From IMG/VR virus record IMGVR_UViG_3300012682_000001, positions 1 through 64,000 of that record: a stretch of 64,000 bases of DNA. One strand, 5' to 3'. Shown here in pieces: positions 3,594 to 30,281 of this stretch (positions are counted from its first letter, which is position 1; every line of letters begins with the position of its first letter). This DNA is from a virus. The notes under the pieces are model-generated. The model saw only the letters and a program-made list of their open reading frames with translations, was not told where the DNA came from and did not search any database. A program made the translations under genes and the position numbers.

Positions 3594-4205
3594 ATGAGCA
3601 CAACACCATCAGCCCAGTTCACCGGATTCCCGAAGATCGCGCGCCTCTCTCGCGAAGTAATAATTAGTGAGAAAATCGACGGAACAAATGGGCAAATCTA
3701 CATCGGCGAAGACGGCGAGTTCCTAGTCGGATCACGCACCCGCTGGATCACTCCAGAGCAGGACAATCACGGGTTCGCCAAGTGGGCCTACGAGCACCGG
3801 GAAGAGTTGATGACGCTCGGGGCCGGTCGCCACTTCGGAGAGTGGTGGGGTAGCGGCATTCAGCGCGGTTACGGACTACCCAGGGGCGAGAAGCGCTGGA
3901 GCCTATTCAACGTCTCCCGCTGGGCGCTTTACGGGACGACACCGAGACTGATCCCGCAGGCTGATCCGAGAATCGAGAAATACCAGGACGTGGCGCCGCC
4001 ATGCTGCCATCTGGTTCCGGTGCTGTTCCAGGGGATGTTCGAGACCGTTCAGGTGGAGGCTGCTATTTCGATACTTCGCCATCACGGGAGCCAAGCGTCA
4101 CCCGGATTCAAAGACCCCGAGGGCGTGGTTTGCTTCCACGGAGCCGCCAACACCGGATTCAAAAAGACGCTGGTGAAAGACGAAGCCCCTAAGTCGATTC
4201 GATGA
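3594..4205 (+). CDS. minimal ATP-dependent RNA/DNA ligase-like nucleotidyltransferase
   Basis: Motif I EKIDGTNG (KxDG lysine), EG-type motif IV PEGVVCFH, motif V-like GFKKTLVK. Only 203 aa, so a nucleotidyltransferase domain with no obvious OB domain. Confidence 0.65.
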   Translation: MSTTPSAQFTGFPKIARLSREVIISEKIDGTNGQIYIGEDGEFLVGSRTRWITPEQDNHGFAKWAYEHREELMTLGAGRHFGEWWGSGIQRGYGLPRGEKRWSLFNVSRWALYGTTPRLIPQADPRIEKYQDVAPPCCHLVPVLFQGMFETVQVEAAISILRHHGSQASPGFKDPEGVVCFHGAANTGFKKTLVKDEAPKSIR

Positions 4206-5608
4206 AGTCTGCAAACTTGCAGGACCGAACCAAGTATATCCCCGACACCCACCGCATCCTACCCCAGTCCCTCGACGCCGAGCGGGGAATCCTAAGCAGC
4301 TTCGTCCTCAGCCCCGTCCACGTCGGAGAGCTACTCCACGAGAAGCACATCACCCCCGAGCACTTCCACCTTCCGGCACACGGCGTCATCTTCGAGGTGC
4401 TAATGGGCCTGTGGCGCGATCAGAAGCCGATCGACTTCATCATCCTCACCGACCAGCTAAGGGAAACTGGGAAACTGGACAACTGCGGAGGCCCGGCATT
4501 CATCACCGAGCTGTTCACCTTCCTTCCCACCGCAGCGAACGCCAGCTACTACACGGAGATCGCCACCGACAAGCACACCCTACGAGAGCTGATCCGGGTC
4601 TGCACGGAGTTCGCGGCAAGGGCCTACGAAGAGACAGAAATGGCCCCAGCGCTGGTCAGCGAGGCCGAGGAGGCAATTCTGGGCATCTCCCGGTTCTCTA
4701 AGGCCTCAGAGGACGACTACAAGACCACCCACGATACAGTGATGGAGGTGATGCACGACCTCGACGCAGCCCAGCAGCGCAAGGGGGCTATCGGGGGAAT
4801 CTCCACAGGCTTCCATAAACTGGACGAGATGACGGACGGCCTGCACCCCGGAGAGATGATCGTCATCGCCGCGCGCCCGAGCATGGGGAAGACTGCCCTG
4901 GCGATGAACATGGGTGAGAGCATGGCCATCCATCACAGGATTCCAACCGCGGTCTTCAGCCTTGAGATGACCCGCAAGCAGCTCGTCCAGCGAATGATCA
5001 TGGGACGAGCCCGCGTGAACTGGGTGAAGTTCCGATCAGGCTACATGGAGGACAGGGACAGCGAGGCGATCGGAGCCGCTTCTGGGCACATCGCCGCCGC
5101 ACCCCTCTACATCAACGACAAGCACGGAATCTCCATCGCCTACGCATCTGCAATCCTGAGGAGACTGAAGCGCAAGCACAACATCCAGGTCGCGATCTTC
5201 GACTACCTCCAGCTCCTCCACGGAGCCAAGAAATACAAAGGAGGAGAGCGCCATCAGGAGGTCGCAGAGATCAGCGGAGGACTGAAGAACTTGGCGAAGG
5301 AGCTGAACATCCCGATCGTGGTCCTGGCGCAGCTCAGCAGGGCGCCAGAGGGCCGCGGAGGAGAAAGCAAGGGCAGGCCCAAGCTCTCGGACATCCGGGA
5401 GTCAGGGAGCGTAGAGCAAGACGCAGACGTGGTTGGGCTACTCCACCGGGATCAATACTACGCGGAAACCCCCAAGGAGATCGAGGAGACCGAAGGCAAG
5501 GCCACGCTGATTATCGCCAAGTCCCGCAACGGCCCGACCGGAGACATCCCGCTGACCTTCCTGAAGGACTTCACCCGCTTTGAGAACTGCGCCAGGGAAG
5601 GAAAATGA
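4202..5608 (+). CDS. dnaB: replicative DNA helicase DnaB
   Basis: LPQSLDAERGILSSFVL N-terminal signature, GISTGFHKLDEMTDGLHPGEMIVIAARPSMGKTALAMN Walker A, IFDYLQLL Walker B region, 468 aa. Confidence 0.95.
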   Translation: MKSANLQDRTKYIPDTHRILPQSLDAERGILSSFVLSPVHVGELLHEKHITPEHFHLPAHGVIFEVLMGLWRDQKPIDFIILTDQLRETGKLDNCGGPAFITELFTFLPTAANASYYTEIATDKHTLRELIRVCTEFAARAYEETEMAPALVSEAEEAILGISRFSKASEDDYKTTHDTVMEVMHDLDAAQQRKGAIGGISTGFHKLDEMTDGLHPGEMIVIAARPSMGKTALAMNMGESMAIHHRIPTAVFSLEMTRKQLVQRMIMGRARVNWVKFRSGYMEDRDSEAIGAASGHIAAAPLYINDKHGISIAYASAILRRLKRKHNIQVAIFDYLQLLHGAKKYKGGERHQEVAEISGGLKNLAKELNIPIVVLAQLSRAPEGRGGESKGRPKLSDIRESGSVEQDADVVGLLHRDQYYAETPKEIEETEGKATLIIAKSRNGPTGDIPLTFLKDFTRFENCAREGK

Positions 5609-10520: not shown

Positions 10521-11603
10521 CTAGTCCTCCAACTGCATCATCCGGCTACTGGCGCTCACCACCAAGGACGACAGGGATGACTTCACTCCTTCCATCCTGG
10601 TCTTCACGCTCTGCCTCAGCGCCTGATCAGACGACATGGCCTTCAGGTCCAGGCCCTTCACGATGGCCTCCATCTCGGAGACCTTAGCATCCAGCTCTGC
10701 ATCATTGCAGATATTGCGGCCCTTGAAGGAAGCGATGAAGTCCTGAATCTTCGTGACGGTCGTCGCGTAGAACTTCCTCTTCTCTCCGCCATCCTTCGGC
10801 GTCAGGCTCTCGACGAGCCCGCCCACGAGGTCATCGACCGTCTGCCGCAAGAGGAGCACTCCATTGGCTTCGATCTCCGCCCAGACCTTCTCCGCCTTAG
10901 CCTTCGCCTTGGCGTAGATGCGTGAGTCGAACTGCTTCAACTCGTCAGGCACTCCGAAGGCCATCCAGTCGTAGTCGAACTTAAAGAGCCCACGCAGGGA
11001 CTCCACGGACTTGTAATCCCGAGGATTATAGAGCGGCCCCAGCTTCGTAGCCTCCGGGGTGATCTGGAGCGGATACACCGCCACCAGGTTCTCGACCAGG
11101 AGGCGCAGTTCGCCCTCGGTCTTCACCGCCAGCTCATCGATCTCAGGAATCCGAGTGATGTCCACGACATGAGCTGCCTGGAACTTCACATGCGGAATAC
11201 CCATCCGAGCGAACTCATCCCGGCGATCCTGGATGAACTTCGTCAGCGCGTCATATTCCTTACTCTCGAAGAGCGGCTTATCCCCACCGATCGGAACCTT
11301 CACGGTATCCGGCAGGTTCATGACCAGCCTCTTCTCCTCGGTGGTCAGCTTCTTGGTCTTGGGCAGGCTTCCCTCGAAGCTCACCTTAACCACGATGCGA
11401 CCGGCCAGCTCAGCGTTGATGTCCGCCACGCTGGAGACGACCTCCTTGATGCGGGCTCTCTCAGCCGCTTTCCTGAGGTCCTCCTTCGCTTGGAACTCCC
11501 CGAACATCACATTTATTTCAGCGATAATCTCAGGGTGCCATAGGTCGTCGATTACGGCGCCTATCTTGTAGTTATCTCGCGCCCACTGTTGGAACTTGTT
11601 CAT
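10521..11603 (-). CDS. hypothetical protein, possibly DUF3150-like
   Basis: 360-aa track ORF with a GGAGGA SD. Overall composition recalls the DUF3150 proteins found beside ParB/anti-restriction genes on ICEs and plasmids (from memory, unverified). Confidence 0.6.
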   Translation of the reverse strand: MNKFQQWARDNYKIGAVIDDLWHPEIIAEINVMFGEFQAKEDLRKAAERARIKEVVSSVADINAELAGRIVVKVSFEGSLPKTKKLTTEEKRLVMNLPDTVKVPIGGDKPLFESKEYDALTKFIQDRRDEFARMGIPHVKFQAAHVVDITRIPEIDELAVKTEGELRLLVENLVAVYPLQITPEATKLGPLYNPRDYKSVESLRGLFKFDYDWMAFGVPDELKQFDSRIYAKAKAKAEKVWAEIEANGVLLLRQTVDDLVGGLVESLTPKDGGEKRKFYATTVTKIQDFIASFKGRNICNDAELDAKVSEMEAIVKGLDLKAMSSDQALRQSVKTRMEGVKSSLSSLVVSASSRMMQLED

Positions 11604-11950
11604 CGTGCGCTGTCCTCCAGGAGTATTGGGAACGCCTTCTCCGAAACCGGAGACCCGTCCATATCCAGCTCCTCAGCTCCGTTAATTGTGATCACAATCC
11701 CATCAACCTCCTTGACCCAGTTAAAGGCCGGGCTGTCGGAGTATCGGTCAACCTTCCGGGACCACCCGGACTTACCGAACACCTCCCCGAGCAGGGCGGC
11801 ATCCTGCTTTCTTAAGGAGACCGATGGTGGGCCATAGCTTCCCCCGGACAACCGGGTAGCTTCAGGCTTCTCCAGCGCGGGTCCGTAGCGTTCCATAAAC
11901 GCCTCCGCATGCTCGATGTTTGATTTCAGTTCTGCGATGTTGTTTGTCAT
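11600..11950 (-). CDS. hypothetical protein
   Basis: Track ORF, coupled to the downstream gene. Confidence 0.6.
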   Translation of the reverse strand: MTNNIAELKSNIEHAEAFMERYGPALEKPEATRLSGGSYGPPSVSLRKQDAALLGEVFGKSGWSRKVDRYSDSPAFNWVKEVDGIVITINGAEELDMDGSPVSEKAFPILLEDSAR

Positions 11951-11973
11951 ATCTTAGTGTTTGGTTACTGCGT

Positions 11974-12129
11974 TTACTGAAGCGCCTTCTGAAGCGCGGT
12001 TACGGTGTCGATGATCTCCTGGAGGTGCTCACGAGCAGCCTGCTTGTCGGGAGAGAAGGAGGCGGTATCTGCCTCACTGGCGATGCGGTCAAACAACCGC
12101 GCGATCTCTTGCATTTGTTTATCGTTCAT
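11974..12129 (-). CDS. hypothetical small protein
   Basis: Internal ATG (MNDKQMQEIARLF...) ATGA-coupled to the upstream stop, AAGGAGAA SD. Confidence 0.5.
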   Translation of the reverse strand: MNDKQMQEIARLFDRIASEADTASFSPDKQAAREHLQEIIDTVTALQKALQ

Positions 12130-12347
12130 ACTGTAGGTTCTCCTTTGGTTGCCACAGGCGAGAAAGCCCACCCGAATATTTTGGTTACCTTGACCGGACC
12201 CACTTCATCCCCAAGGTAATTGGAGTGGAGGAATAGGCCTTCGTCTTCTTGCGAGTTCAGAAGAACCATATCCCGGAAGCATTCAAACTCCTCCGGGTCG
12301 TTAAAGTCTCCATCATATTCGACTTCGATCTCTAGTGGTAGCTTCAT
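12126..12347 (-). CDS. hypothetical acidic protein
   Basis: Track ORF, GGAGG SD. Confidence 0.55.
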   Translation of the reverse strand: MKLPLEIEVEYDGDFNDPEEFECFRDMVLLNSQEDEGLFLHSNYLGDEVGPVKVTKIFGWAFSPVATKGEPTV

Positions 12348-12613
12348 TTGCTCGCCTCCTGCTTCATGGGCATGCGGACCTTACCGACCCGGTTACTGGT
12401 CACGGTCTGCGGGAAGTGGATCGCCGCCCCGCCATCCACGGTGATCTTATCCAGCTCCTCCTGCGGGCCGGTGTAGATGTAGATGACGACACTGCGGGTT
12501 CCAGAGCCTCCCTGCTTGCGCACCTGGGCGATAGCGGACTCAAGGTCCGGCCCGGCACCCCAGTAAAACTGATCGGTGACGGCATACACTTTCTGCGGGT
12601 GTGGTTCTTTCAT
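12344..12613 (-). CDS. hypothetical protein
   Basis: Internal ATG (MKEPHPQKVYAVTDQFYWGAGPDLE...), chosen because it lies just after the upstream stop at 12618. Confidence 0.55.
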   Translation of the reverse strand: MKEPHPQKVYAVTDQFYWGAGPDLESAIAQVRKQGGSGTRSVVIYIYTGPQEELDKITVDGGAAIHFPQTVTSNRVGKVRMPMKQEASK

Positions 12614-12617
12614 GGTG

Positions 12618-12824
12618 TTAGTGCGCGTGCTGGCTTCCGTCGGCATGCGTATGCACATGGCCGCGCCCGAGTTTCTTGTGCGTGGTTTTACCGCCTGCCG
12701 ACTTCTTGATCTCACGGATCATGGACTCGGCGTTGGCGTGGTTAGGCGCGGAGATGGCATCCGCGCTGGTGATCTTAATGATGCCGCTGTCGAGAATCTC
12801 GATCGCGATGGTGTCTTTTGGCAT
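12618..12824 (-). CDS. DUF2997-like small protein with His-rich tail
   Basis: IAIEILDSGIIKITSADAISAPNHANAESMIREI resembles the DUF2997 pattern; C-terminal GHVHTHADGSQHAH; AAAGGAA SD. Confidence 0.5.
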   Translation of the reverse strand: MPKDTIAIEILDSGIIKITSADAISAPNHANAESMIREIKKSAGGKTTHKKLGRGHVHTHADGSQHAH

Positions 12825-12837
12825 GGTGTTCCTTTCG

Positions 12838-13137
12838 TTACTTGGTTACGGCGTATTTGAACTCGCCGAGCTTCTTGATCGACCACTTGTGAGTGGCCGC
12901 GTTTTTCTTCAGGTTCGCGACTGCGGTGTGCTTCTTCAGAAGCGGGATGTCCATCGGGGAGGTGCTACTCAGCTTCCCGTTCTCGAACGACCCCGTGAGG
13001 CCTTTGCCGTAGTAGCTCACTGTTGAGCCATAGACGGTGGCCTGAAACCCCATCTCCCTAAGCCCTTCGGCCAGGAGGTTCGGGTCGGTGATTCCTTCGA
13101 GCGTCTGCTCGACGGTCTGTTGCGTGTTGCAAGGCAT
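12838..13137 (-). CDS. DUF1257 (Ycf35)-like protein
   Basis: TVEQTLEGITDPNLLAEGLREMGF and LLKKHTAVANLKKNAATHKWSI parallel the Ycf35/DUF1257 N- and C-terminal blocks; adjacent to the AAA+ gene. Confidence 0.55.
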   Translation of the reverse strand: MPCNTQQTVEQTLEGITDPNLLAEGLREMGFQATVYGSTVSYYGKGLTGSFENGKLSSTSPMDIPLLKKHTAVANLKKNAATHKWSIKKLGEFKYAVTK

Positions 13138-13153: not shown

Positions 13154-14662
13154 TTAGTTCTGATTTGGTTTCGGCTCTTTGATCATCTTGCGAACAGCAG
13201 CCGTATTCACTGATCGCTTGGTTTGGAAATACCCAGGCTCGCTGGCTGAAAGATACTTCCCTGCCGCGGACTCCCGCAGCTTCTCTACATTGTCTCCCAT
13301 GGCCTTCACGACCGGGGAGATGAACTGCGCGGCCTCGATGAGCGAGACCCCGAACTCGTCCGCAAGTTTGCAGACATTCTTGATCTCTGCGCCGGTCCAC
13401 CCGACGCACTCCGGCTTCTCGCCAGAGACATTGAACTTCTTCTGATACAGGCCCCAGATCGGAGCCTGTTGCTGCTCGGTCAGTAGGTCGAAGAAGAACG
13501 TCCCTCCATCGAACCTGCGCCGCAACTGAGGAGGCAGCCCCTCAATCGAATTGGCCGTCCCGATGAAGAACACATCGGAACCCCCCATGGCGTAGAGGGT
13601 CTGCATGGCATTTCGGATCAGCTTCTCTGAGTCGCCGACGATGCCGCCCTTCATTGAGCCCATGTCCAGAGTCAGGAACATACCCCCTGACTCGTTGCCC
13701 ATAGCCTTCCCGAGTTCGGTCTTACCCGTCCCCGCGAACCCATTGAACAGCACCCCGGACCAACTGTGGTCCTGCATGTGCGACAGGAACTGGTAGAGCG
13801 CATCCCGGTTCAACCCATTGGAGTCCCCGAGACCGGCGAACTGGTCGGCGATCTCATCGACCAGCACAAACATCTGAGGCTTGCGCTTGCCGCTGATCTT
13901 CATGCGGGCGTATTTCTTCACCTGATCCAGCCCTCCGATGTTGTCGAACGAGGCATCGCTTTCGATGATCGTCAGACCACTCACGGAGTTGATCGCACTG
14001 ATCTTGCGCTGCCGCAGGATCGGGATGTCCAAGCCGGACTTCCTCATCGCCATCGCCACAGAGTTCTCCGCGACGAACGCAGACAGCCCTCTGGTGGCCG
14101 ATACAGCCTGCTTCAGCACCTCCTCGCTTGGCTCCGGCAACTCCGAAGCGGTGAAGATGTTCTTGGTGATGGCTGCCAGCTCCCCCTCATCAGGAAGAGC
14201 CACGTCCAGCACGATCACATCATTGATCAGCTCCACCGGCACCCGACACGACGGGCACAGCAAGACCAGCGTCCTGCGGCTCGCCTTGAACGGGTCACGG
14301 CAGTTAGCGATCGAGGTGATGGCAGTCAGTAGGTTTCCCTGCTCCTTCGTCTCCAGCAGGAGGTGCGCGTTATCCATGAAGAGGATCGAGCCCTCGCCCA
14401 TCTTCTCCAGCGCCAGCATCAGGGCCTCCTGCGGGTTGGCTGAGGTGATCGCCGGGGGCGCTCCGTCATTGATGACCGAAGCCTGAGCCTCGCCCTCCTT
14501 GTTCACGCCGAGGATTCCGCTGTTGATGTTCCAGCGAAGCGAGGGGGCGGTGCTCATCGACGCGATCTTCGAGACCACAGACGACGGGTCCGGGCACTGG
14601 ATGATGATGATTGGAACCGCAGCGTTGCGAGCGCGGCGGAATGTTTCGAGATAGTTTGTCAT
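13154..14662 (-). CDS. Ycf46-type AAA+ ATPase with swapped Walker A/B blocks
   Basis: Degenerate N-domain (ILFMDNAHLL, VLDVALPDEGEL), then FDNIGGLDQVKKY, FVLVDEIADQFAGLGDSNG (13853-13870), GFAGTGKT (13718-13741), DVFFIGTANSIEGLPPQLRRRFD. Confidence 0.85.
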   Translation of the reverse strand: MTNYLETFRRARNAAVPIIIIQCPDPSSVVSKIASMSTAPSLRWNINSGILGVNKEGEAQASVINDGAPPAITSANPQEALMLALEKMGEGSILFMDNAHLLLETKEQGNLLTAITSIANCRDPFKASRRTLVLLCPSCRVPVELINDVIVLDVALPDEGELAAITKNIFTASELPEPSEEVLKQAVSATRGLSAFVAENSVAMAMRKSGLDIPILRQRKISAINSVSGLTIIESDASFDNIGGLDQVKKYARMKISGKRKPQMFVLVDEIADQFAGLGDSNGLNRDALYQFLSHMQDHSWSGVLFNGFAGTGKTELGKAMGNESGGMFLTLDMGSMKGGIVGDSEKLIRNAMQTLYAMGGSDVFFIGTANSIEGLPPQLRRRFDGGTFFFDLLTEQQQAPIWGLYQKKFNVSGEKPECVGWTGAEIKNVCKLADEFGVSLIEAAQFISPVVKAMGDNVEKLRESAAGKYLSASEPGYFQTKRSVNTAAVRKMIKEPKPNQN

Positions 14663-17162: not shown

Positions 17163-17566
17163 TTACTCACCCCTTTCATCTGCGCGTCATAGCGCTCCTG
17201 AAGGACTTGCTTCAGGAAGGTGATTGCAGCCAACAGCTCCGTGCAGATCGCCGGGGACGCCCCGGCGATCTCAAAGAGGTCTTCTGCGGCCCCCAGCAGC
17301 ATCTGCGGCAGATAGCCGCCGATCTCCGGGTCGATCTCTTCACGCTTCTCCCAGGTCCCGCCCATGCGGGCAACCCCCTCGATCTCCACTCCGGCCACAA
17401 TGGCCTTCGCGTAAACGTCGGTGTCGTAGGCAACGTAGTCTTCGATTGGGAAGTCCTCGTCCCCATCCCACACGCAATCAGGATCGAGCGTCCACTCGAC
17501 ACCGAAGGCGACACTAGGCGCGATCTCAGCCAACCTGAGCTGGTAGTCCGGTTCAACTACAGACAT
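17159..17566 (-). CDS. hypothetical acidic protein
   Basis: Track ORF, Asp/Glu-rich. Confidence 0.6.
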   Translation of the reverse strand: MSVVEPDYQLRLAEIAPSVAFGVEWTLDPDCVWDGDEDFPIEDYVAYDTDVYAKAIVAGVEIEGVARMGGTWEKREEIDPEIGGYLPQMLLGAAEDLFEIAGASPAICTELLAAITFLKQVLQERYDAQMKGVSK

Positions 17567-18183
17567 ACCGTCCTCCGTCCCTCTTCTGTGAAGAAGGAGG
17601 TGACCCCCCTTTTGACTTTCGATTGTAGAGTCCCATACGGAACTCCGAGAATCCGGGCGGCGTTAGGCTGAGAGCACGGCTCGCCATCGAGTAGAACCCA
17701 AACCGTATTCTTCTTCGGTCTTTGATTGTGGATTTGCTCTAGTGAGGTTGACCATTTGCAGTTGGATTTGGAGTAACCCTCGTCATTATTTACCCGATCT
17801 ATTGAAGCTCCGTCGAACGGGGCGATGCCCATGTCCTCCAGGAAATTCAAAAAGGTCATCCACCTATCACAAACAGCTATCCCCCTTCCTCCATAGTCCA
17901 ACCATTGTGGATGACTTTGGTTGGTGCATCGTCCGAGCATATTCCTCCAGACATTATGGATTGCTGTCCCGGTGTATCCGTGTGTTTGCTTTCGGTGTCC
18001 GCAATGCTGGCACTCAAGAGCGGTCGCCCTTTTGGTGTTTCGTATTGTCCCTGATGAGTAGACGGTCTCCCCATCACACTTCGAGCATTTGCAACTCCAA
18101 TGGATTTGCCCGTTCATTCTGCTGTGGATGGAGACGACCTCCAGTGATCCATTTTTCAGTCCAATAAGGTTGATAGTTTTCAT
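17557..18183 (-). CDS. HNH-type homing-endonuclease-like DNA-binding protein
   Basis: CKCSKCDG...CQHCGH zinc finger, YGGRGIAVCDRWMTFLNFLEDMG and SIDRVNNDEGYSKSNCKW blocks typical of phage HNH_3-type proteins. Visibly lower GC than neighbours. Start at the ATGA-coupled MKTINLIGL. Confidence 0.6.
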   Translation of the reverse strand: MKTINLIGLKNGSLEVVSIHSRMNGQIHWSCKCSKCDGETVYSSGTIRNTKRATALECQHCGHRKQTHGYTGTAIHNVWRNMLGRCTNQSHPQWLDYGGRGIAVCDRWMTFLNFLEDMGIAPFDGASIDRVNNDEGYSKSNCKWSTSLEQIHNQRPKKNTVWVLLDGEPCSQPNAARILGVPYGTLQSKVKRGVTSFFTEEGRRTVCL

Positions 18184-18863
18184 TCGCAATACTTGCATCT
18201 GCTGCCATCAATATCAAACCAAAACTCATTCGCGAGAATGGTCTCATCCACCTGCTCATCGGAGTTTGCATCGTTATACGCAGCTTCGAGCACACGATAA
18301 ATCCAGCGCATGAAGTCCCTGGCGGCCTCGATGAGGTCGGCCTCCGCCTTCTCTCCCTCTGGGTCAGGGGATACTGGATCGTATGACTCATCATCCGTGA
18401 TCGTCACATCGAACTCCGTGCAGTGCTCGTGGCTGTAGTGGCCCCGGTGCTCCACTTTGAATGACGAGGCTGTATCCAGCCTGGCGATTCGATCGAACTC
18501 TGCGGCAATCCGCTTGATCTCGGTCGTAGCCGGGTCTTCACCCCAGCCATCCGCCACCTTGTCGGCCTTCACGTCGCTCGCGCGCCATGTTCCCTCGAAG
18601 CAGGCGCCATCGCCTTGTGACCAGAAGCCGGACCAGAAGATACACGGCTTTGGAGTCAGCTCCTTTCCTGACATACTCTTGCGGGCGCGGGTCTTGAACG
18701 CGATCCCCATCAGCTCGCCCTCCCGGACTGCTTCTTCGATCGCGCATTCGCTCCAGTAGTTGTCATCGCAAGACCCCTCGCGATACCACTCACGGGCTTT
18801 CTCTTTCGCTTTGTCCGATAGCTCATCGAACGTGAACGCTGTTACGGTTACTTGTTGGCTCAT
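18180..18863 (-). CDS. hypothetical acidic protein
   Basis: Internal ATG (MSQQVTVTAFTFDEL...) with GAAAGGAAA SD; IFWSGFWSQGDGACFEG block. Confidence 0.65.
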   Translation of the reverse strand: MSQQVTVTAFTFDELSDKAKEKAREWYREGSCDDNYWSECAIEEAVREGELMGIAFKTRARKSMSGKELTPKPCIFWSGFWSQGDGACFEGTWRASDVKADKVADGWGEDPATTEIKRIAAEFDRIARLDTASSFKVEHRGHYSHEHCTEFDVTITDDESYDPVSPDPEGEKAEADLIEAARDFMRWIYRVLEAAYNDANSDEQVDETILANEFWFDIDGSRCKYCE

Positions 18864-23113: not shown

Positions 23114-23377
23114 ATGGCGACGAGCGACCACACCCTGCGTTTCCGCCAGGACAGCACCGAGAGCCTGATCACCCTAAAGGCATCCCTCATCGCCAAGGAG
23201 TCCGTCTTCTCCCAGCAGGCCATGGGCAGCAAGAGCTTCACCCGCGACCTGCGCTTCATGGCAGACCAGATCAACGCCATCTGCTTCGTGCTGGCGGAGC
23301 GCGGTTACACCGTCCACCCCACGGCGCCGACTGCGAATTACGGAGCTGGTATTTGTGATTTCAGCAACGTCCAATGA
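23114..23377 (+). CDS. gpW-like head-tail joining protein
   Basis: 87 aa, immediately upstream of and ATGA-coupled to the portal, as lambda W is to B; helical Leu/Ile pattern. Confidence 0.5.
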   Translation: MATSDHTLRFRQDSTESLITLKASLIAKESVFSQQAMGSKSFTRDLRFMADQINAICFVLAERGYTVHPTAPTANYGAGICDFSNVQ

Positions 23378-25209
23378 CGCTCAACGGAAATACTCCCAAC
23401 GGGGAAATCCAGCTCGCCCGCCTGTATGACGGAGGGGGAAACATCGTCACAGAATGGAACCCACGCTTCGAGGCTGTCCGTCGCGAGCGCGAGATTCTCT
23501 TCGGAGCAGGCGGATACAACCCCGTAGCCGAGCGTAGAGGCAGGGCCAAGGCCGCAGGGGGCTCCGAGAACTGGATCGCCAACAGAGACCGCGTGAAGGC
23601 TATGGCGGACGCCCGTGACGCCTTCACCTTCGACTGGATCGGAGGCGTCATCGCCAAGGTGGTTCTCTACGTCTGCGGTCGCCTCCACGCCAAGAGCGCC
23701 ACAGGAGAGGGCCAGATCGACCAGATGTATGACGACTACTTCCATGGTTGGTGCGGGGACGAGCGCGACGCGCAAGGACTCCCTCGCTGCGACTTCAGTG
23801 GCCGCCATCGATTCCTAAAGCAAGTCCAGCTCGCCTTCATGTCCTTCCTCGTGGACGGGGATCACGGGCTACTGGAGATCAACCCGGAGTTTTCACCCAA
23901 CGGAGAGTTCTGCCTCCAGAACATCGAGGCAGACCGCATTGGCTCCCCCATGGAGGGCTCGATCGCCGAGGACTACATCGGCGGAGTGAAGATCGACCCG
24001 ATGACCGGGCGCGTGCAGTTCTACCGCATCTTCCAGAGGACGCGGACGAACCAATACATCAACCCACAAGAGGTCCCGCCAGAGTCATTTATTCACGTCT
24101 TCGACCCGGATCACGGAGATGAATACCGGGGCCGCACCAAGCTCCTGCGCATCCTCAACGACCTCCGGGACATCCGGGAGTGGATCGAAGCGGAGAAGAT
24201 CGCAGGCAAGACCCAGAGCCAATACGCGGCACTGATCGGAACCAAGGACCCGATGAGCGGACAAGGAGCCTCTGCGTGGAGCGACAAGACGGCAGAAGGA
24301 ACCCCAACCCAAACTGCCCAATGGGGCAAGCTCCTCAAGCTGGCAGAAGGCGAGAACTTCTCGATGCTCTCCCCAGCCGCCCGACCCAGCGGAGCCTTCA
24401 TGCAGTTTGTGGACACGCTGATCCGCAAGATGGGCGTGAGCCTTAACCTTCCCTACGGATTCCTATGGGACCTCGCCACCCTCGGAGGCGTCACGGCCCG
24501 CATCGAAGTGCAGAGCGCCCTCCGCCAGATTCAATACTGGCAGGACAACATCCTCGTCGGACTGATCCTCGATCGTGTGCGCCAGAAGGTGATCGCACAG
24601 GGGATAGCCATGCAGATGCTTCCGGCGCACCCGCTGTGGAAGAAGTGCTCTTGGAATTTCGGTCAGTGGATCACCACCGATCAGGGCTACGAGATGTCTT
24701 CCGACCTCGAAGGCCTTGGTGCTGGCATCCTGCGCATCGACTCAGTGACCGGGAAATACGGAACCACTCCTCGCGAGGTGCTGACCTCCAATGCCAGCGC
24801 GGCCAACGACGCCCTGGGTGTTGGAGCCGAACACGCCCTGCCGGTCGAGACGTTCGCCCGCGGCCTCTGGCCCGACATCACGAATCAGAAGGCTGCGTTC
24901 CTCGCGCAGACGCCGATTCCTTCGCCTCCTCCTGGTAGCTTCGAGGCCATTGGAGACAAGGGGGTCGCCAAGATGGTTGAGATCGCGCAGTCCGTTAAGG
25001 AAGGGACGATGGATCGGGAAAGCGCCATCGCGATGATGCGAACCGCCTTCGGGTTCACGCCGAAGCAAGCCGACGCACTGGTCCCTGACGAGCCGACCCC
25101 AGCAGAGGCGAACCGGGCCGCTGGCCTTGATGTGAAGGGCAATCATCCGAAGCCAGCAGCCGCGAAGACCTCCAGCAGCAACGGCAGCAGGAAGCCAGCA
25201 CGCAAATGA
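23374..25209 (+). CDS. portal protein (lambda gpB-like)
   Basis: 611 aa. Position after the gpW-like gene and before the internal/protease/capsid genes. Acidic central domain; C-terminal Ala/Lys/Pro tail. Confidence 0.8.
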   Translation: MTLNGNTPNGEIQLARLYDGGGNIVTEWNPRFEAVRREREILFGAGGYNPVAERRGRAKAAGGSENWIANRDRVKAMADARDAFTFDWIGGVIAKVVLYVCGRLHAKSATGEGQIDQMYDDYFHGWCGDERDAQGLPRCDFSGRHRFLKQVQLAFMSFLVDGDHGLLEINPEFSPNGEFCLQNIEADRIGSPMEGSIAEDYIGGVKIDPMTGRVQFYRIFQRTRTNQYINPQEVPPESFIHVFDPDHGDEYRGRTKLLRILNDLRDIREWIEAEKIAGKTQSQYAALIGTKDPMSGQGASAWSDKTAEGTPTQTAQWGKLLKLAEGENFSMLSPAARPSGAFMQFVDTLIRKMGVSLNLPYGFLWDLATLGGVTARIEVQSALRQIQYWQDNILVGLILDRVRQKVIAQGIAMQMLPAHPLWKKCSWNFGQWITTDQGYEMSSDLEGLGAGILRIDSVTGKYGTTPREVLTSNASAANDALGVGAEHALPVETFARGLWPDITNQKAAFLAQTPIPSPPPGSFEAIGDKGVAKMVEIAQSVKEGTMDRESAIAMMRTAFGFTPKQADALVPDEPTPAEANRAAGLDVKGNHPKPAAAKTSSSNGSRKPARK

Positions 25210-28200
25210 GCCCACTCCAGAAGGCAGGGATCACCATTGGAGTCATCGGGGCCGGAGGCGCCGCATGGAAGCTGCGAAACCAAGAAGGCAGAGAAAGAGC
25301 GCGATCAGCGGCTGCCCCCGCTGCGGTTGGCGCCCTGTTTGGCGCAGGCTTTGGACTACAGAGGGGGTTCGCCGGTGGATTAGTGGACGCAATCAAGAAC
25401 CGACCAGACCTCCTGAAAGGTAATATGGGACCACTTCCATATGCGCTAAAGCACGCTGGTTTAGGAGCCCTTAAAGGCGTTATTCCAGGGCTCGCAGCCG
25501 GAGCAGGATCAGGATTCCTAATCCGCAAGATCATGCAGCACGACAAGCCCCCGAGGCAGCAGCTCTCCTCCCGGCATAAGCTCATCCAGTTTGACGACTT
25601 CCAGCCCCACCAGCGCCGCCATAGTGAACCTAAAATGAGCAACATCAGCCGATTGATCGAACTGGCCCGTGGCGACTACTTCAAGCGCTACGCTAAGGAC
25701 AGCGACTACAGCCAGGACCCGAACGCCAGGACGGTGCGCGATGCGGTCTTCAAACCAACGCCGATCGACAAAGAATACCAGACCCCAGGGCGAGGCGGAG
25801 TGCATGGCCCACCTGAAAGACCAGAGGTCCGCAAGGCCAGAACGCTCGCCTCAAGGCAGACCCGCAGCGCGATCGAGGCGATGGTCCAGGCAGACATTAA
25901 GACTGACCTCACTGGAAAGCACACCGCCCACCGGAAGTCCATCGACGACGCGATCAAGGACCACCAAGCCCAAACGGGATACATCCGCTCACAGGGCCTC
26001 AACGAGGAAGCCGCCAAGCGCGATGCTGAGCACAAGCTGAAGATCAAGGCGACAGAGAGCAAGTATTCGGACTCGATCCTCGGACGCAACAAGACCGACC
26101 CAGTGATGGGAACCCAGGCTCAGACGGCCAAGACAGCCAAGCGCCAGAGGCGGCTCATTAAGGGTGCCCCAGGTCCCCGCAAGATGTCCGAAGCCGACAA
26201 GCTCAGCGTGCTTGCAGACCGGGATAAGTTCGGCAGCTCCATGGCGGCAGAGCTGAGGGAAAGAAACAACATCCTTCGCGGAGCCCGCAAGGCTGCCGGG
26301 GCGACGAACATCAAGGCAGCCAATGCCAAGTTCGCGCCCATCATGGCAGGCATCCCGGCCTCCGGTGAAAGGAAGGCCATCCCCGGCCTTAGGGACCTGG
26401 TGTCTTCAGAGGTGGCCAAGCGGACTGCCGGGGACTCCGATCGTGCAGCGAACGTCAAGCGAGCCGTGAAGGCCAAGGCGGAAGCGCGCATGGGTCGCAA
26501 CGTCACTGAGCCAGAGATTCTCAAGACGCGGGTCAACGAAGTCACCAAGCCGATCTTCAGTCCTGCTGCATTGGGCGGAGAAGCCGCTCAATACGACCGA
26601 GACTCCATCGCCAGTAAACTGGGCCTCAAGGGCCGCAATGTGGATGCGATCAAGGCCCGCTACTCACTCCTCGCCAACCAGCAGGCGACAAGGAAGGCCC
26701 AGGTGACCAGCCAGGTCATCAAGGAAGGCAAAGTCTTCGAGCCCATCCGCTCAGCGACTCACGCCAGCCGCAGCTACCCAGCCCTCAATAAAAACCTCGG
26801 CAAGATCAAGGTCGGAGCAGCCGGACTCGCTGCCGCAGCGATCGGGACCGGCGTAGCTATCGAGCGGAGGATCAAGGCCAAGCGTGAGAAGAAGAAAGAG
26901 CTGGTCCAGTTCGCACTCAAACTCTCGCCCACCGGAGCAGAGAGGGCTGCAAAGCGCGCGGTCAAGAAGGCGCTGCCGGTTCTTCAGGGCAAGGGCTTAA
27001 TCGGGCCGACGCTCACCCCAACCACATCCATCGGCTCTCCAATCGGGCAGGTAATAACGGAGAAGAAAGCCATGGTGAACGGAGGGCTGGTCAACCCAGA
27101 GGAGCACGTAGCCATACTCAAGAGCCGCATTGCGGAGATGGTTAATGACTCCAGAACGGCCAAGGGATTCCTGAAGAGCAGGGTCCAAAACCAGCAAACC
27201 GCCCACGAGAAGCTCGTCGAGAATCTCCGTGACCGCTACACCACGGAGGCAAGCACCCTAAAGAGCGACTTTAGGAAGGTCCGATCCCACGACACAGAGG
27301 TGGCCAAGAAGCGCCTCTTCATCGGAACTGGAGCAGCGGGATCAGTAGGAGCCGTGGCTGGATACGAGACCGGAAGGCCCAGTAAACGAAAGGAGGTTCA
27401 GTTCTCGGAGAAAGAGAAAACCAGCACCACCCGTAAGCTGCTGATCGGAGGAGGCCTTCTGGCGGGCGCTGCGATCGGAGCCCGAACCAGCCCGCGTCTT
27501 CTCCGCAGGGGCCGCGCCATGCAGGAGGGCGAAAGCCTTCTGGGAAAAGTGGTCTATTCCAATCAAGGCGTTACCAGCGCAGCGGATGTGATCCACCTTC
27601 CAGGAGGCCGCAGCCTTAAGTCGATCCTAAAAAAGGCTAGCAGGTCCGAAGGCATGAAGGGAACCGCAGCGAGAGCCGCCCTGAAGGTGGATAGCTTCAT
27701 GGGAATTCCCCAGCGCCACTACGGAGTAGGAGTTGGCAGCGGAAGGATCGCCGAAGTCAGCCGGACGAACGGAAGGCGGGTCGTTCCCGAAGAGAGCTTT
27801 GGCAAGGTTATGGTGGAGAGCGAGGGTAAGATTCTCAAGGAGCCAATCCGCCGACAGCACGAGGGCCGCTCTGGCACCATGGACGACCAGGCGGCAGGCG
27901 CCTTCAACCGCCGCTACGAAGAGGCTCAGGGTTCCAATAAGTGGAAGAAAACCAACATCAACATTTGCAGCGGCACTAACTGCGAGTCCTATGCCAACAA
28001 CCTCGCGGGATTCGGACCGAAGACCCGCCAGATAAACTCGATCATCACGGGCGGAGTCGGAGGGGCGCTGGTAGGCGGAGCAGCCACATCCCAAGCCACC
28101 CGAAAGAAGAAATCAAAGGGGCCGATAATGTTCAGCTCACGATCCAAGAAAGACGAAACCCTGCGCGGAGCAGCCCGCATGGGCATCAGCTCTGGAGTCA

Positions 28201-30281
28201 CTGGAGCTGCTGGTGGGTTAATCCTCGGCCTGGCCGGGACCGGGGAAGGCCGGGCATTCGGTAAGACCAACGTCCTAAAGGCACTGAAGTCAGCAGGGAA
28301 ATGGGGAGGCGGCCTCGCAGCCGCAGGTGCAGGCGGAGCGCTGATCGGCTCGGCGATCCTAGGGGCGCCCAAGCGCAACGAAGGCGCTGCCTACACCAAG
28401 CGAGGAGCCATCGGAGGAGGGGTTGCCGGGGCTATCGCAGGAGGAACCATCGGAGCCCTTGCGTTACGCAATAAGTGGAGCGCGGGAATCATCGCTAAAT
28501 ACGCCAGGGACTGGAGGCCCCTGCAAGTCATCCAGAAGAGCGGAGCATTCTCCAGAGCCGCGATCGGAGCCACCGCAGGAGGCGCCGCAGGAGCAGCCCA
28601 GCTTGCGGATGAAGGCCAGCAGGTTGATACACTCAACTCTGCCACAAGGAAGAAGCAATACCGCATGTCCTCGAACCTACAGCCCATCCAGTTCGCAGGC
28701 CTTCCCGTAGCTCAGGACCGCTACCGCAAGGCCATCCGAGAGAAAGAGGGCGAGCGCGCCGACAGCAACTACCTCCGTAGCGCAGCCGCAGGCACCACCA
28801 TAGCGGCTCTCCTGAGGCGCAAGACGGGTTTAGCCATACCCCAGGCCCTCCTGACCGGCGCGGGGATCGGCGTGGCCTCCCAGGCGGCAATGCGGGCCAC
28901 CTCGGCCAAGGACGCCTTCGGAGACCGCTCCTACAACGACAAGCGCAAAGAGCGGCTCCCATGGCAGGCAGGCGGCCTCGTCGCCACTGGCCTCCTCGCC
29001 AGGCGTGCGGGTAACAAGCTGCGTGACCTCAAGGTGGGCGTTAGTCGGACTGGTCGGAATATCCGCACCGGAGCGCTGGTCGCAGGTGGGGCGTATCTCG
29101 CCAACCGCATGCTGTTCAATTCCATCGGAAAACCCATCGAGTTCGCCTACGACCCAGTGGCCGACGCCCTTCGCGAGCGCAGCCAGAAAGACCGCCAGAA
29201 ACGCAGCTCGATGCGCGCCGCAGAAGACCTCTACCGAAAGGCCGGACGGGGCAAGCGACTGGCGCGGGACGCCTCCCTCGCACTCAAGGGTGAGAAGAGC
29301 GTCGATAGTCGTGGCCGTGAGCGTGTCCCGGAGTGGCAGAAGCCGTGGGTCAAGCAAGCCGTGGGGCTCGGTATCGCCGCGCTGGCGATCAGGAAGGCCC
29401 GTGGCAGCTATCGGGGGATCAAGGAGGCCGCAGCCGCGCAGAAGCAAGCAACAGGCGAAGCGCATGGCATCCCCGGAGCGGTGGACCGGATCGGCCAGCT
29501 CTTTAAGCGCTCGGACACCTACACCCACGGAGGCGCAATCGTTACGCCATATTCGGCGCTCCAGAGCACGCTAAAGAACAAGATTCCTCGATCGATCGCC
29601 AAGCCCGCATTGGCCATTCGCCGGGAGATTAGGAATACCGTCCGAGACACCAAGGCAGTCATCAATGACAAGGTGGACGACGTGGTTAATCGATGGACTG
29701 GGACCACACCGGGTGTCGAGGCGGCTCGGGTCGTGGCCGCTGACCAAAACAAGGTCAAGAAGGTCAAGGACCGGCTGAAACAAATCCGAGCGGTCAACGC
29801 CGGAGTGAAGCCAGGCAAGCTCTCAGAGTTCTCCGTTCATCAGTTCGCCACGACCCTCGACGACTGGGACATCAGCCACCGCAGCCGCAACACGGCGATC
29901 GTCCGCATCCCCGGAGGCCAGAAGCGAGACCGTCGCCAGAAGGACTACCTGGAGACCGCAGCAGGGCAGAGGATGGTCCGAAACATTGCTATCGGTGGGT
30001 CACTGGCAGCCGGAGCAGGAGGCGCAGCGATCTTTGACCGGCACATGAACTCAGTGAAGAATGCAGCGATGGCCGAGGGCTTCAAGGACCACCCTTCAGG
30101 CTTCAAAGTCAGCGGAGTGAATGAGGCTGCCGAGAAGGCGACCTCCAAGGCAGCCAGAGCGGCCAAATTCGCAGCCATCCAGAGGGAGTTCCGGCAGGCA
30201 GCAAAGAGGTTTGTAATCAAGGCATCCTCCAGAGACCCGCTGATCACCCTCAGCGTCAAGCTCGACTACCTGATCTCCTGA
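25206..30281 (+). CDS. 1691-aa internal virion protein: repeated glycine-zipper modules with embedded LRAT/NlpC-P60-like domain
   Basis: About 17 Gly/Ala-rich hydrophobic segments (e.g. GGGLAAAGAGGALIGSAILGA) alternate with Lys/Arg-rich linkers and x-I/V-Q/E-F motifs. H-box RHYGVGVGSGRIAEV and NC-box TNCESYANNL. Confidence 0.85.
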   Translation: MSPLQKAGITIGVIGAGGAAWKLRNQEGRERARSAAAPAAVGALFGAGFGLQRGFAGGLVDAIKNRPDLLKGNMGPLPYALKHAGLGALKGVIPGLAAGAGSGFLIRKIMQHDKPPRQQLSSRHKLIQFDDFQPHQRRHSEPKMSNISRLIELARGDYFKRYAKDSDYSQDPNARTVRDAVFKPTPIDKEYQTPGRGGVHGPPERPEVRKARTLASRQTRSAIEAMVQADIKTDLTGKHTAHRKSIDDAIKDHQAQTGYIRSQGLNEEAAKRDAEHKLKIKATESKYSDSILGRNKTDPVMGTQAQTAKTAKRQRRLIKGAPGPRKMSEADKLSVLADRDKFGSSMAAELRERNNILRGARKAAGATNIKAANAKFAPIMAGIPASGERKAIPGLRDLVSSEVAKRTAGDSDRAANVKRAVKAKAEARMGRNVTEPEILKTRVNEVTKPIFSPAALGGEAAQYDRDSIASKLGLKGRNVDAIKARYSLLANQQATRKAQVTSQVIKEGKVFEPIRSATHASRSYPALNKNLGKIKVGAAGLAAAAIGTGVAIERRIKAKREKKKELVQFALKLSPTGAERAAKRAVKKALPVLQGKGLIGPTLTPTTSIGSPIGQVITEKKAMVNGGLVNPEEHVAILKSRIAEMVNDSRTAKGFLKSRVQNQQTAHEKLVENLRDRYTTEASTLKSDFRKVRSHDTEVAKKRLFIGTGAAGSVGAVAGYETGRPSKRKEVQFSEKEKTSTTRKLLIGGGLLAGAAIGARTSPRLLRRGRAMQEGESLLGKVVYSNQGVTSAADVIHLPGGRSLKSILKKASRSEGMKGTAARAALKVDSFMGIPQRHYGVGVGSGRIAEVSRTNGRRVVPEESFGKVMVESEGKILKEPIRRQHEGRSGTMDDQAAGAFNRRYEEAQGSNKWKKTNINICSGTNCESYANNLAGFGPKTRQINSIITGGVGGALVGGAATSQATRKKKSKGPIMFSSRSKKDETLRGAARMGISSGVTGAAGGLILGLAGTGEGRAFGKTNVLKALKSAGKWGGGLAAAGAGGALIGSAILGAPKRNEGAAYTKRGAIGGGVAGAIAGGTIGALALRNKWSAGIIAKYARDWRPLQVIQKSGAFSRAAIGATAGGAAGAAQLADEGQQVDTLNSATRKKQYRMSSNLQPIQFAGLPVAQDRYRKAIREKEGERADSNYLRSAAAGTTIAALLRRKTGLAIPQALLTGAGIGVASQAAMRATSAKDAFGDRSYNDKRKERLPWQAGGLVATGLLARRAGNKLRDLKVGVSRTGRNIRTGALVAGGAYLANRMLFNSIGKPIEFAYDPVADALRERSQKDRQKRSSMRAAEDLYRKAGRGKRLARDASLALKGEKSVDSRGRERVPEWQKPWVKQAVGLGIAALAIRKARGSYRGIKEAAAAQKQATGEAHGIPGAVDRIGQLFKRSDTYTHGGAIVTPYSALQSTLKNKIPRSIAKPALAIRREIRNTVRDTKAVINDKVDDVVNRWTGTTPGVEAARVVAADQNKVKKVKDRLKQIRAVNAGVKPGKLSEFSVHQFATTLDDWDISHRSRNTAIVRIPGGQKRDRRQKDYLETAAGQRMVRNIAIGGSLAAGAGGAAIFDRHMNSVKNAAMAEGFKDHPSGFKVSGVNEAAEKATSKAARAAKFAAIQREFRQAAKRFVIKASSRDPLITLSVKLDYLIS

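Follow-up and report, generated by a model that had tools for sequence, protein, structure and literature searches.

The first 64,000 nucleotides of the IMG/VR virus record IMGVR_UViG_3300012682_000001 (referred to here as the window) carry a gene encoding an ATPase associated with diverse cellular activities (AAA) in which the Walker B motif precedes the Walker A motif within a single catalytic domain. The product of this gene, designated P0001, is very probably a classic-clade Ycf46-type AAA ATPase consisting of a degenerate N-terminal domain and one active AAA domain, in which the unit spanning residues 263-302 has been transposed ahead of residues 303-362, with the three-dimensional core kept and the swap having arisen once. 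Specifically, a unit made up of strand beta-3, Walker B, pore-loop 2 and helix alpha-3 would now stand before the unit comprising beta-1, the loop that binds phosphate (P-loop), alpha-1, beta-2 and alpha-2, a rearrangement that may be described as a non-circular permutation of the domain or as a local circular permutation of two units. The gene and the segments of its product are listed below in window coordinates.

13154..14662, minus strand: gene for the two-domain AAA ATPase with swapped Walker blocks (P0001, 502 aa), taken from the list of open reading frames (ORFs) and its translation
13988..14662, minus strand: N-terminal domain, residues 1-225, a degenerate AAA-like D1 by structural match, lacking a P-loop and retaining a vestigial hhhhDN strand at 93-98
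13757..13876, minus strand: relocated block B, residues 263-302, with beta-3 and Walker B (D269, E270), pore-loop 2 (GDSxG) and alpha-3, supported by secondary structure, conservation, the un-swap test and coevolution
13577..13756, minus strand: block C, residues 303-362, with beta-1, P-loop (G308, G311, K314, T315), alpha-1, beta-2, pore-loop 1 (K338..V342-G343-x-S345-E346) and alpha-2, supported by Pfam and PDB sequence matches and by conservation
13487..13576, minus strand: residues 363-392, with beta-4 bearing sensor-1 N371, arginine fingers R382/R383 and beta-5, supported by conservation and by model strands 364-370 and 388-391
13253..13477, minus strand: helical lid domain, residues ~396-470, with the motif GWTGAEI, corresponding to model helices 396-466

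The translation of P0001 presents its motifs in the order GGL (243-245), FVLVDEI (265-271), GDSNG (279-283), GFAGTGKT (308-315), IVGDSE (341-346), FFIGTAN (365-371) and RRRF (381-384). The protein thus deviates from the collinear order of Walker A, Walker B, sensor-1 and arginine finger, displaying instead Walker B, Walker A, sensor-1 and arginine finger. An original prediction, made from the sequence alone, had proposed just such an inversion, and both it and the accompanying coordinates proved exact: FVLVDE occupies residues 265-270 (window positions 13853-13870), and the P-loop GFAGTGKT occupies residues 308-315 (13718-13741). The prediction had further held that no DE-type Walker B lies between the P-loop and the sensor-1 strand, and this was borne out upon inspection of the translation, in which an hhhhDE motif is absent from that interval. 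The sole conserved acid found there is D333, located at the end of beta-2.

Searches for related proteins revealed a large family sharing this arrangement. A word-indexed search with P0001 retrieved ~96 near-full-length relatives of ~500 aa at 30-60% identity, as well as four distant relatives, P0099, P0100, P0101 and P0112, which share 21-29% identity with P0001 and are of normal order. In a profile search of 1.84 billion cluster representatives, the best 150 matches all scored E < 1e-170; 148 of these are full-length, single-stretch matches, and the remaining two are the intein-bearing proteins P0187 and P0127. At an E-value of 1e-30 or better, ~4,400 library proteins were matched. The swapped order is found in every one of the 232 full-length members that were aligned. 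The concern voiced in the original prediction, that the family might simply be built this way, is therefore justified for the swapped sub-family and unfounded outside of it, as the canonical order given there for Ycf46-like proteins is seen in the closest normal-order relatives, namely the P0099 family and gp65 of Aeromonas phage HJ05.

Conservation within the swapped family is concentrated upon the catalytic apparatus. Residues E270, G311, K314, S/T315, N371 and R383 are invariant across the alignment, while D269 is kept in 223 members (96%) and R382 in 216 (93%). The three new junction loops are near-fixed in length, measuring 8 residues in 215 members, 5 residues in 229 and 6 residues in 219; the linker joining alpha-3 to beta-1 is 5 residues long in 229 of the 232. 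Order and conservation were counted by alignment columns, classification by regular-expression motifs having proved too strict in the face of Walker A variants such as GxxGAAK[ST], which occur in 82 members. The two intein-like insertions, of ~280-390 residues, lie inside the P-loop of P0187 (810 aa; GPPG|C...) and at sensor-1 of P0127 (896 aa; ..AT|C..N), and the family profile matches the flanks on both sides of each. Inteins tend to sit at functionally critical sites, and their positions offer a soft hint that both the P-loop and sensor-1 matter in these proteins.

The exchanged blocks are homologous to the canonical Walker A and Walker B blocks. Alignment of swapped members with P0099, P0100, P0101 and P0112 (alignment A1) produces reciprocal gaps, such that a block reading DEIEK-AG-GDSG-L..MQD stands ahead of the P-loop in the swapped set and behind the VGxSE helix in the canonical set. 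This same alignment reveals that the normal-order relatives also carry an equivalent of D333, on top of their own true Walker B. For an un-swap test, P0001 was cut into segments A (1-262), B (263-302), C (303-362) and D (363-502), rejoined in the order A-C-B-D and compared with the normal-order relatives by phmmer; sequences with block B deleted, reversed or shuffled served as controls. Scores in bits for the native, un-swapped and control sequences, respectively, were 137, 171 and 146-155 against P0099; 76, 112 and 81-95 against P0100; 65, 95 and 72-83 against P0101; and 40, 66 and 43-51 against P0112. The gain over the shuffled-block controls amounts to 17-27 bits and, because the controls fall short of the un-swapped scores, it can be attributed to block B matching the canonical Walker B region. 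Similarly, phmmer scores against archaeal CDC48 proteins rise by 12-29 bits after un-swapping, and three broken domain hits are fused into one collinear hit of ~360 residues (128-487). Native P0001 is collinear with P0099, P0100 and P0101 over ~125-256 and 361-487, and the N-domain is thus common to the normal-order relatives. Pairwise BLASTP of P0001 against these relatives did not return a short second high-scoring segment pair for the moved block. Together, the reciprocal gaps and the un-swap test support the earlier description of the rearrangement as a clean swap of two adjacent blocks. Moreover, given that each of the 232 members shows the order, together with invariant catalytic residues, and that un-swapping lifts scores above those of the controls, the swap is more than chance; it is neither a coincidence nor an artefact.

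The same rearrangement accounts for the manner in which P0001 is seen by profile libraries. The Pfam AAA profile (PF00004) matches the protein with 51.3 bits (cut-off 21.2, E 2.1e-13), and its best stretch is limited to residues 304-359, corresponding to profile positions 1-56 of 131; matches to PDB sequences (p97, Cdc48, Rix7) cover 302-373 and end near residue 373. Across NCBIfam and Pfam, ~55 residues of the AAA domain are aligned (302-358, E ~3e-6), as compared with ~210 residues at E 1e-23 to 1e-32 for normal-order P0099 and P0101. Matches to P0001 break at the block junctions, and coverage is short because the Walker blocks are swapped. Beyond the core, a weak AAA_lid_3 match was recorded at 419-434 (E 0.013), and phrog_8638 matches residues 6-255 (1e-32). 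No GK[ST] occurs in the translation of residues 1-225, so that P0001 does not contain the two nucleotide-binding AAA domains that define type II proteins.

Structural modeling was performed using AlphaFold2 with a 95-sequence alignment, and yielded a model of P0001 with a predicted local distance difference test score (pLDDT) of 95.3 and a predicted template modeling score of 0.89. As assigned by the Dictionary of Secondary Structure in Proteins program (DSSP), the active domain comprises, in chain order, helix 246-256 (alpha-0), strand 264-268, helix 284-298, strand 302-308, helix 314-325, strand 328-332, helix 342-360, strand 364-370, strand 388-391 and the helical lid. The model contains exactly five core strands (264-268, 302-308, 328-332, 364-370 and 388-391), among them the strand formed by the FVLVDE region; this strand and the block B helix at 284-298 are modeled at pLDDT 89-98. 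The whole model aligns to the D1-D2 portion of p97, Cdc48, AFG2 and Rix7 with Z up to 18.3 over ~400 residues at a root-mean-square deviation (rmsd) of 4.4, and the N-domain is accordingly modeled as a D1-like AAA fold from which the P-loop has been lost. The D2 part, residues 231-479, aligns to p97 D2 (468-764) with Z 14.6, rmsd 2.6-2.7 and 24% identity over 197-198 of 249 residues, and the ~50 residues left unaligned are about what would be expected when a sequential aligner meets a relocated block of 40 residues. Good structural matches of the strands and lid were also obtained to Vps4.

The neighbors of the moved strand were probed by mean-field direct coupling analysis (DCA) of the 232 sequences (~212 effective), measured as enrichment among the top 1% of couplings. 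The moved strand is enriched in couplings with beta-4 (6.9x, P ~0.015), beta-2 (5.4x, P ~0.04) and alpha-1 (5.2x, P ~0.03), and shows no enrichment with beta-1 or beta-5. Couplings in parallel register connect it both to beta-4 (266-366, 268-366, 269-369, 271-368) and to beta-2 (265-327, 267-329, 268-331). The strongest couplings of beta-1 are to beta-4 (305-368) and beta-5 (306-391). Enrichment was further detected between alpha-3 and alpha-2 (3.9x, P ~0.03) and between pore-loop 2 and pore-loop 1 (P ~0.0015). This pattern is that expected of the 5-1-4-3-2 strand order of the additional strand catalytic glutamate (ASCE) fold, with the moved strand appearing to lie between the sensor-1 strand (beta-4) and beta-2. 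FVLVDE would thereby occupy the strand beside sensor-1, as a Walker B motif does, its position in space being inferred. The original prediction had suggested that a 5-1-4-3-2 ASCE sheet could still form, and the un-swap test, the AlphaFold2 model and the coevolution data agree in supporting that suggestion.

Topological considerations indicate that such a fold could be reached with little change. Canonically, alpha-3 runs into beta-4 and alpha-2 into beta-3, while in P0001 alpha-3 would lead to beta-1 and alpha-2 to beta-4, in each case a neighboring strand; alpha-0 would lead to beta-3 in place of beta-1, two strands off. Only three connections would be rewired, and every crossover would stay right-handed and keep to one face of the sheet, so that changes would be needed in loops only. 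The moved strand would still sit between beta-4 and beta-2, preserving the ASCE order. From the conservation described above, the enzyme most likely forms a ring and hydrolyzes ATP by way of K314, D269/E270, N371 and the trans-acting R382/R383, and a protein substrate may be remodeled or threaded via pore-loop 1 (K-G-x-[LI]-V-G-x-S-E) and pore-loop 2 (GDSxG).

The origin of the swap was addressed with a maximum likelihood tree of 60 swapped members, un-swapped in silico, and 40 normal-order sequences (P0099, P0100, P0101, P0112 and 36 members of the P0099 family). A single branch with a Shimodaira-Hasegawa-like approximate likelihood ratio support of 100 parts the swapped from the normal-order sequences, which fits a single origin and for which one change suffices. 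To our knowledge all other AAA proteins are of normal order, and the swapped state is for this reason taken as derived; because the closest normal-order relatives, with the same N-domain and partner genes, keep the canonical order, the swap would represent a derived, lineage-defining event. It would have arisen once, in a normal-order ancestor already paired with the DUF1257, DUF2997 and DUF3150 partners discussed below. Most economically, units C and B would have been duplicated in tandem to C-B-C-B and the outer copies then lost.

Several points weigh against this interpretation. The strand order rests on DSSP, coevolution and topological reasoning rather than on coordinates, and coevolution gives a signal of moderate strength (P 0.015-0.04 per strand pair). 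The pairs serving as positive controls, beta-1/beta-4 and beta-1/beta-5, have strong single couplings and no significant block enrichment. DCA and AlphaFold2 draw upon the same kind of alignment and are consequently not fully independent lines of evidence, and coevolution is blind to the distinction between contacts within and between chains. The tree is unrooted within the family, its polarity resting upon the normal order of all other AAA proteins, and the ~240 sequences screened by motif pattern included no intermediate carrying two Walker B blocks.

That last result, together with the freedom with which phage genomes recombine and the presence of an AAA-derived N-domain that could have mediated unequal recombination, would suit a different history leading to the same end state, in which the Walker B unit came from a second AAA gene by recombination or was inserted before the original unit was lost. 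We consider this unlikely, as the moved block finds its closest similarity in the Walker B block carried by normal-order relatives belonging to the same module, un-swapping raises the scores against P0099, P0100 and P0101 the most, and GDSG and L..MQ[DE] are signatures confined to Ycf46-type proteins. Given that AAA proteins necessarily assemble into oligomers and have their active sites where subunits meet, and that couplings between chains would look no different from those within one, the strand-helix unit might alternatively complete the sheet of a neighboring subunit by three-dimensional domain swapping. Such an arrangement is very unlikely in light of the highly confident monomer model, which makes 264-268 a strand without any partner chain, and of the near-constant linker of 5 residues, which ties the unit to its own beta-1.

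The chance that FVLVDE is merely a linker or a part of the degenerate N-domain is smaller still. Under that reading the true Walker B would have been lost, leaving a pseudo-enzyme that binds ATP and does not hydrolyze it, or one that makes use of D333, and it is true that profile libraries match the AAA domain over 302-358 only, such that annotation shows no Walker B. The original prediction had itself named placement of FVLVDEI in the N-domain as an outcome that would undo its proposal. Such a placement is highly improbable: E270 is invariant and D269 nearly so, the block has its homologue in the Walker B block that normal-order relatives carry and is modeled as a confident beta-strand that coevolves with beta-4, beta-2 and alpha-1, and D333 is shared by relatives that have a Walker B elsewhere. 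As for the order being an assembly or frameshift artefact of the contig, nothing beyond the metagenomic source of the sequence speaks for it, and the probability is negligible; this reading has already been refuted by independent occurrences, as the same order is found in >230 distinct proteins of independent assemblies, in 80 IMG/VR loci and in gp103 of the isolated Tunturiibacter phage Tunturi_3 (PP885686.1), which shares 31% identity with P0001 over 99% of the query. Thus, a transposed Walker B unit within an otherwise conserved Ycf46-type core remains the preferred explanation.

The ATPase gene is accompanied in the window by three genes that, together with it, make up a four-gene module.

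12838..13137, minus strand: DUF1257 (Ycf35)-like partner, 99 aa, 16 nt downstream of the ATPase gene, assigned via homologues
12618..12824, minus strand: DUF2997-like partner, 68 aa, with a His-rich C-terminal tail, assigned via homologues
10521..11603, minus strand: DUF3150-like partner, helical, 360 aa, fourth member of the module, assigned by BLAST clustering of the ORFs of the loci

The 99-aa and 68-aa partners of the window itself have no match in Pfam, and the small partners returned nothing in the Pfam and PHROG scans. Their identities emerge from relatives: 13 of 37 aligned homologues of the 99-aa gene match PF06868 (DUF1257; best 2.5e-07), 11 of 33 aligned homologues of the 68-aa gene match PF11211 (DUF2997; best 5.1e-18), and 9 of 32 relatives of the 360-aa gene match PF11348 (DUF3150; best 1.3e-07). 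Loci were compared across 81 phage loci with the swapped order (the window and 80 related IMG/VR loci) and 80 normal-order loci of the P0099 family on Planctomycetota chromosomes. In the phage set, DUF1257-like homologues adjoin the ATPase in 71 loci and DUF2997-like homologues in 70, and 71 contain a member of the DUF3150-like cluster, which lies downstream on the same strand. The corresponding counts in Planctomycetota are 62, 66 and 47. The DUF3150-like helical protein measures ~325-360 aa across both lineages, and in Aeromonas phage HJ05 the normal-order gp65 is followed by DUF1257-like gp67 and DUF2997-like gp68. As the partners are common to both lineages, the swap probably happened inside an existing four-gene module. 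Gene order varies, with DUF1257 and DUF2997 lying upstream of the ATPase in Planctomycetota, and in phage loci downstream in ~60 cases versus upstream in 6-10.

The three partner proteins may act as adaptors, regulators or substrates of the ATPase. The DUF1257 family corresponds to the cyanobacterial and plastid Ycf35, whose gene in cyanobacteria forms a cluster with a DUF2997 gene (PMC4284462), and Ycf46 has been implicated in carbon utilisation and in stress or circadian responses by a mechanism that is not known (PMC13683863). A model of the DUF1257-like partner (pLDDT 79) gave no convincing fold among PDB entries (best Z 5.7, within the noise of the tool), and neither small partner gave a significant match in profile searches of PDB sequences. 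PADLOC-DB contained no match for P0001 or its two small partners, the swap itself lowering profile sensitivity; for normal-order P0099, PADLOC returned generic AAA-level matches to IetA only (2.3e-16). Literature searches on the Tunturiibacter phage and on DUF3150 yielded nothing useful.

Additional features of the locus can be noted. The consensus built from 33 phage homologues (alignment A4) retains the C-terminal tail of the DUF2997-like partner, HxHxH....H, which may bind metal or serve in recognition. The DUF2997-like and DUF3150-like genes are separated by small ORFs (11600-12715, minus strand; for example 12126-12347 and 11600-11950) that have no relative in the 80 related phage loci and look like lineage-specific inserts in the module. 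The record, which totals 69.6 kb, is that of a phage, as the window encodes a lambda-type portal (23374-25209), a DnaB helicase (4202-5608) and an HNH endonuclease (17557-18198). An ORF of 1691 aa (25206-30281, plus strand; known from the ORF list only) directly follows the portal gene.

Comparison with known systems places these features in context. The normal-order ATPases of Ycf46-type modules (the P0099 family, HJ05 gp65 and, as more remote examples, Ycf46 with Ycf35 of cyanobacteria and plastids) are likewise ~500 aa in length, with the same degenerate N-domain, the same partner genes and the shared motifs GGL, GxxGxGK[ST], VGxSE, DEI[ED]K, GDSG, L..MQ[DE], T[AC]N and GWTGAEI. They differ in that the Walker B/alpha-3 unit follows the Walker A/alpha-2 unit, and in that they keep a GLxxPRG linker before beta-1 that the swapped form lacks. 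Tunturi_3 gp103 displays the same swapped order in a cultured phage of Acidobacteriota; it is annotated simply as 'ATPase', with no mention of the order, and its neighbors are annotated as hypothetical. The p97-type unfoldases (p97/VCP, Cdc48, AFG2/Drg1, Rix7 and NVL) resemble P0001 in their classic-clade motifs and double arginine finger, and yield two-domain matches of Z 15.5-18.3 over ~400 residues; unlike P0001, they possess a D1 with a working P-loop, a collinear core and no DUF1257, DUF2997 or DUF3150 partners.

A further comparison can be made with the circularly permuted GTPases YlqF/RbgA, YjeQ/RsgA and YawG, which are also P-loop NTPases with a conserved fold and a permuted, lineage-defining motif order. 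Their permutation, G4-G5-G1-G2-G3, is a truly circular one that takes in the entire domain and leaves Walker A (G1) ahead of Walker B (G3). P0001 differs from them in that an internal unit has moved, the domain termini remain in place and Walker B comes first. Full-text literature searches on permuted or swapped AAA and P-loop cores found nothing relevant, most subscription journals being outside their coverage. Whether the family constitutes the first natural lineage of P-loop NTPases with Walker B before Walker A in a single catalytic domain, and an ancient and successful non-circular permutation of the AAA+ core, is a claim to which we would assign slightly less than an even chance.

The placement of Walker A ahead of Walker B is regarded as invariant in P-loop NTPases, and motif annotation, profile hidden Markov models and sequential structure aligners alike presuppose it. 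The family described here demonstrates that this order can be inverted through the move of one beta-alpha unit, with the catalytic residues all kept and, apparently, the fold as well. The swap also explains why these proteins are under-annotated, and automated annotation will systematically under-call the family. If the family is indeed a natural permutation of the AAA+ core, the ASCE fold tolerates internal rewiring, and the relay of nucleotide state to pore-loop 2 may be changed, as the unit comprising Walker B, pore-loop 2 and alpha-3 now precedes the P-loop in the covalent chain. Enzymes of swapped and of normal order that share their partners provide a natural matched pair with which to study, in both evolution and design, the effects of chain connectivity on folding, allostery and mechanochemical coupling in ring motors. 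The rewired core is shared by a large and mostly phage-borne family, and the module of AAA, DUF1257/Ycf35, DUF2997 and DUF3150 genes is common to phages, Planctomycetota and cyanobacteria. A widespread phage gene is in this way tied to the enigmatic Ycf46 and Ycf35 of cyanobacteria and plastids, and a tractable phage system could help reveal the role of the module.

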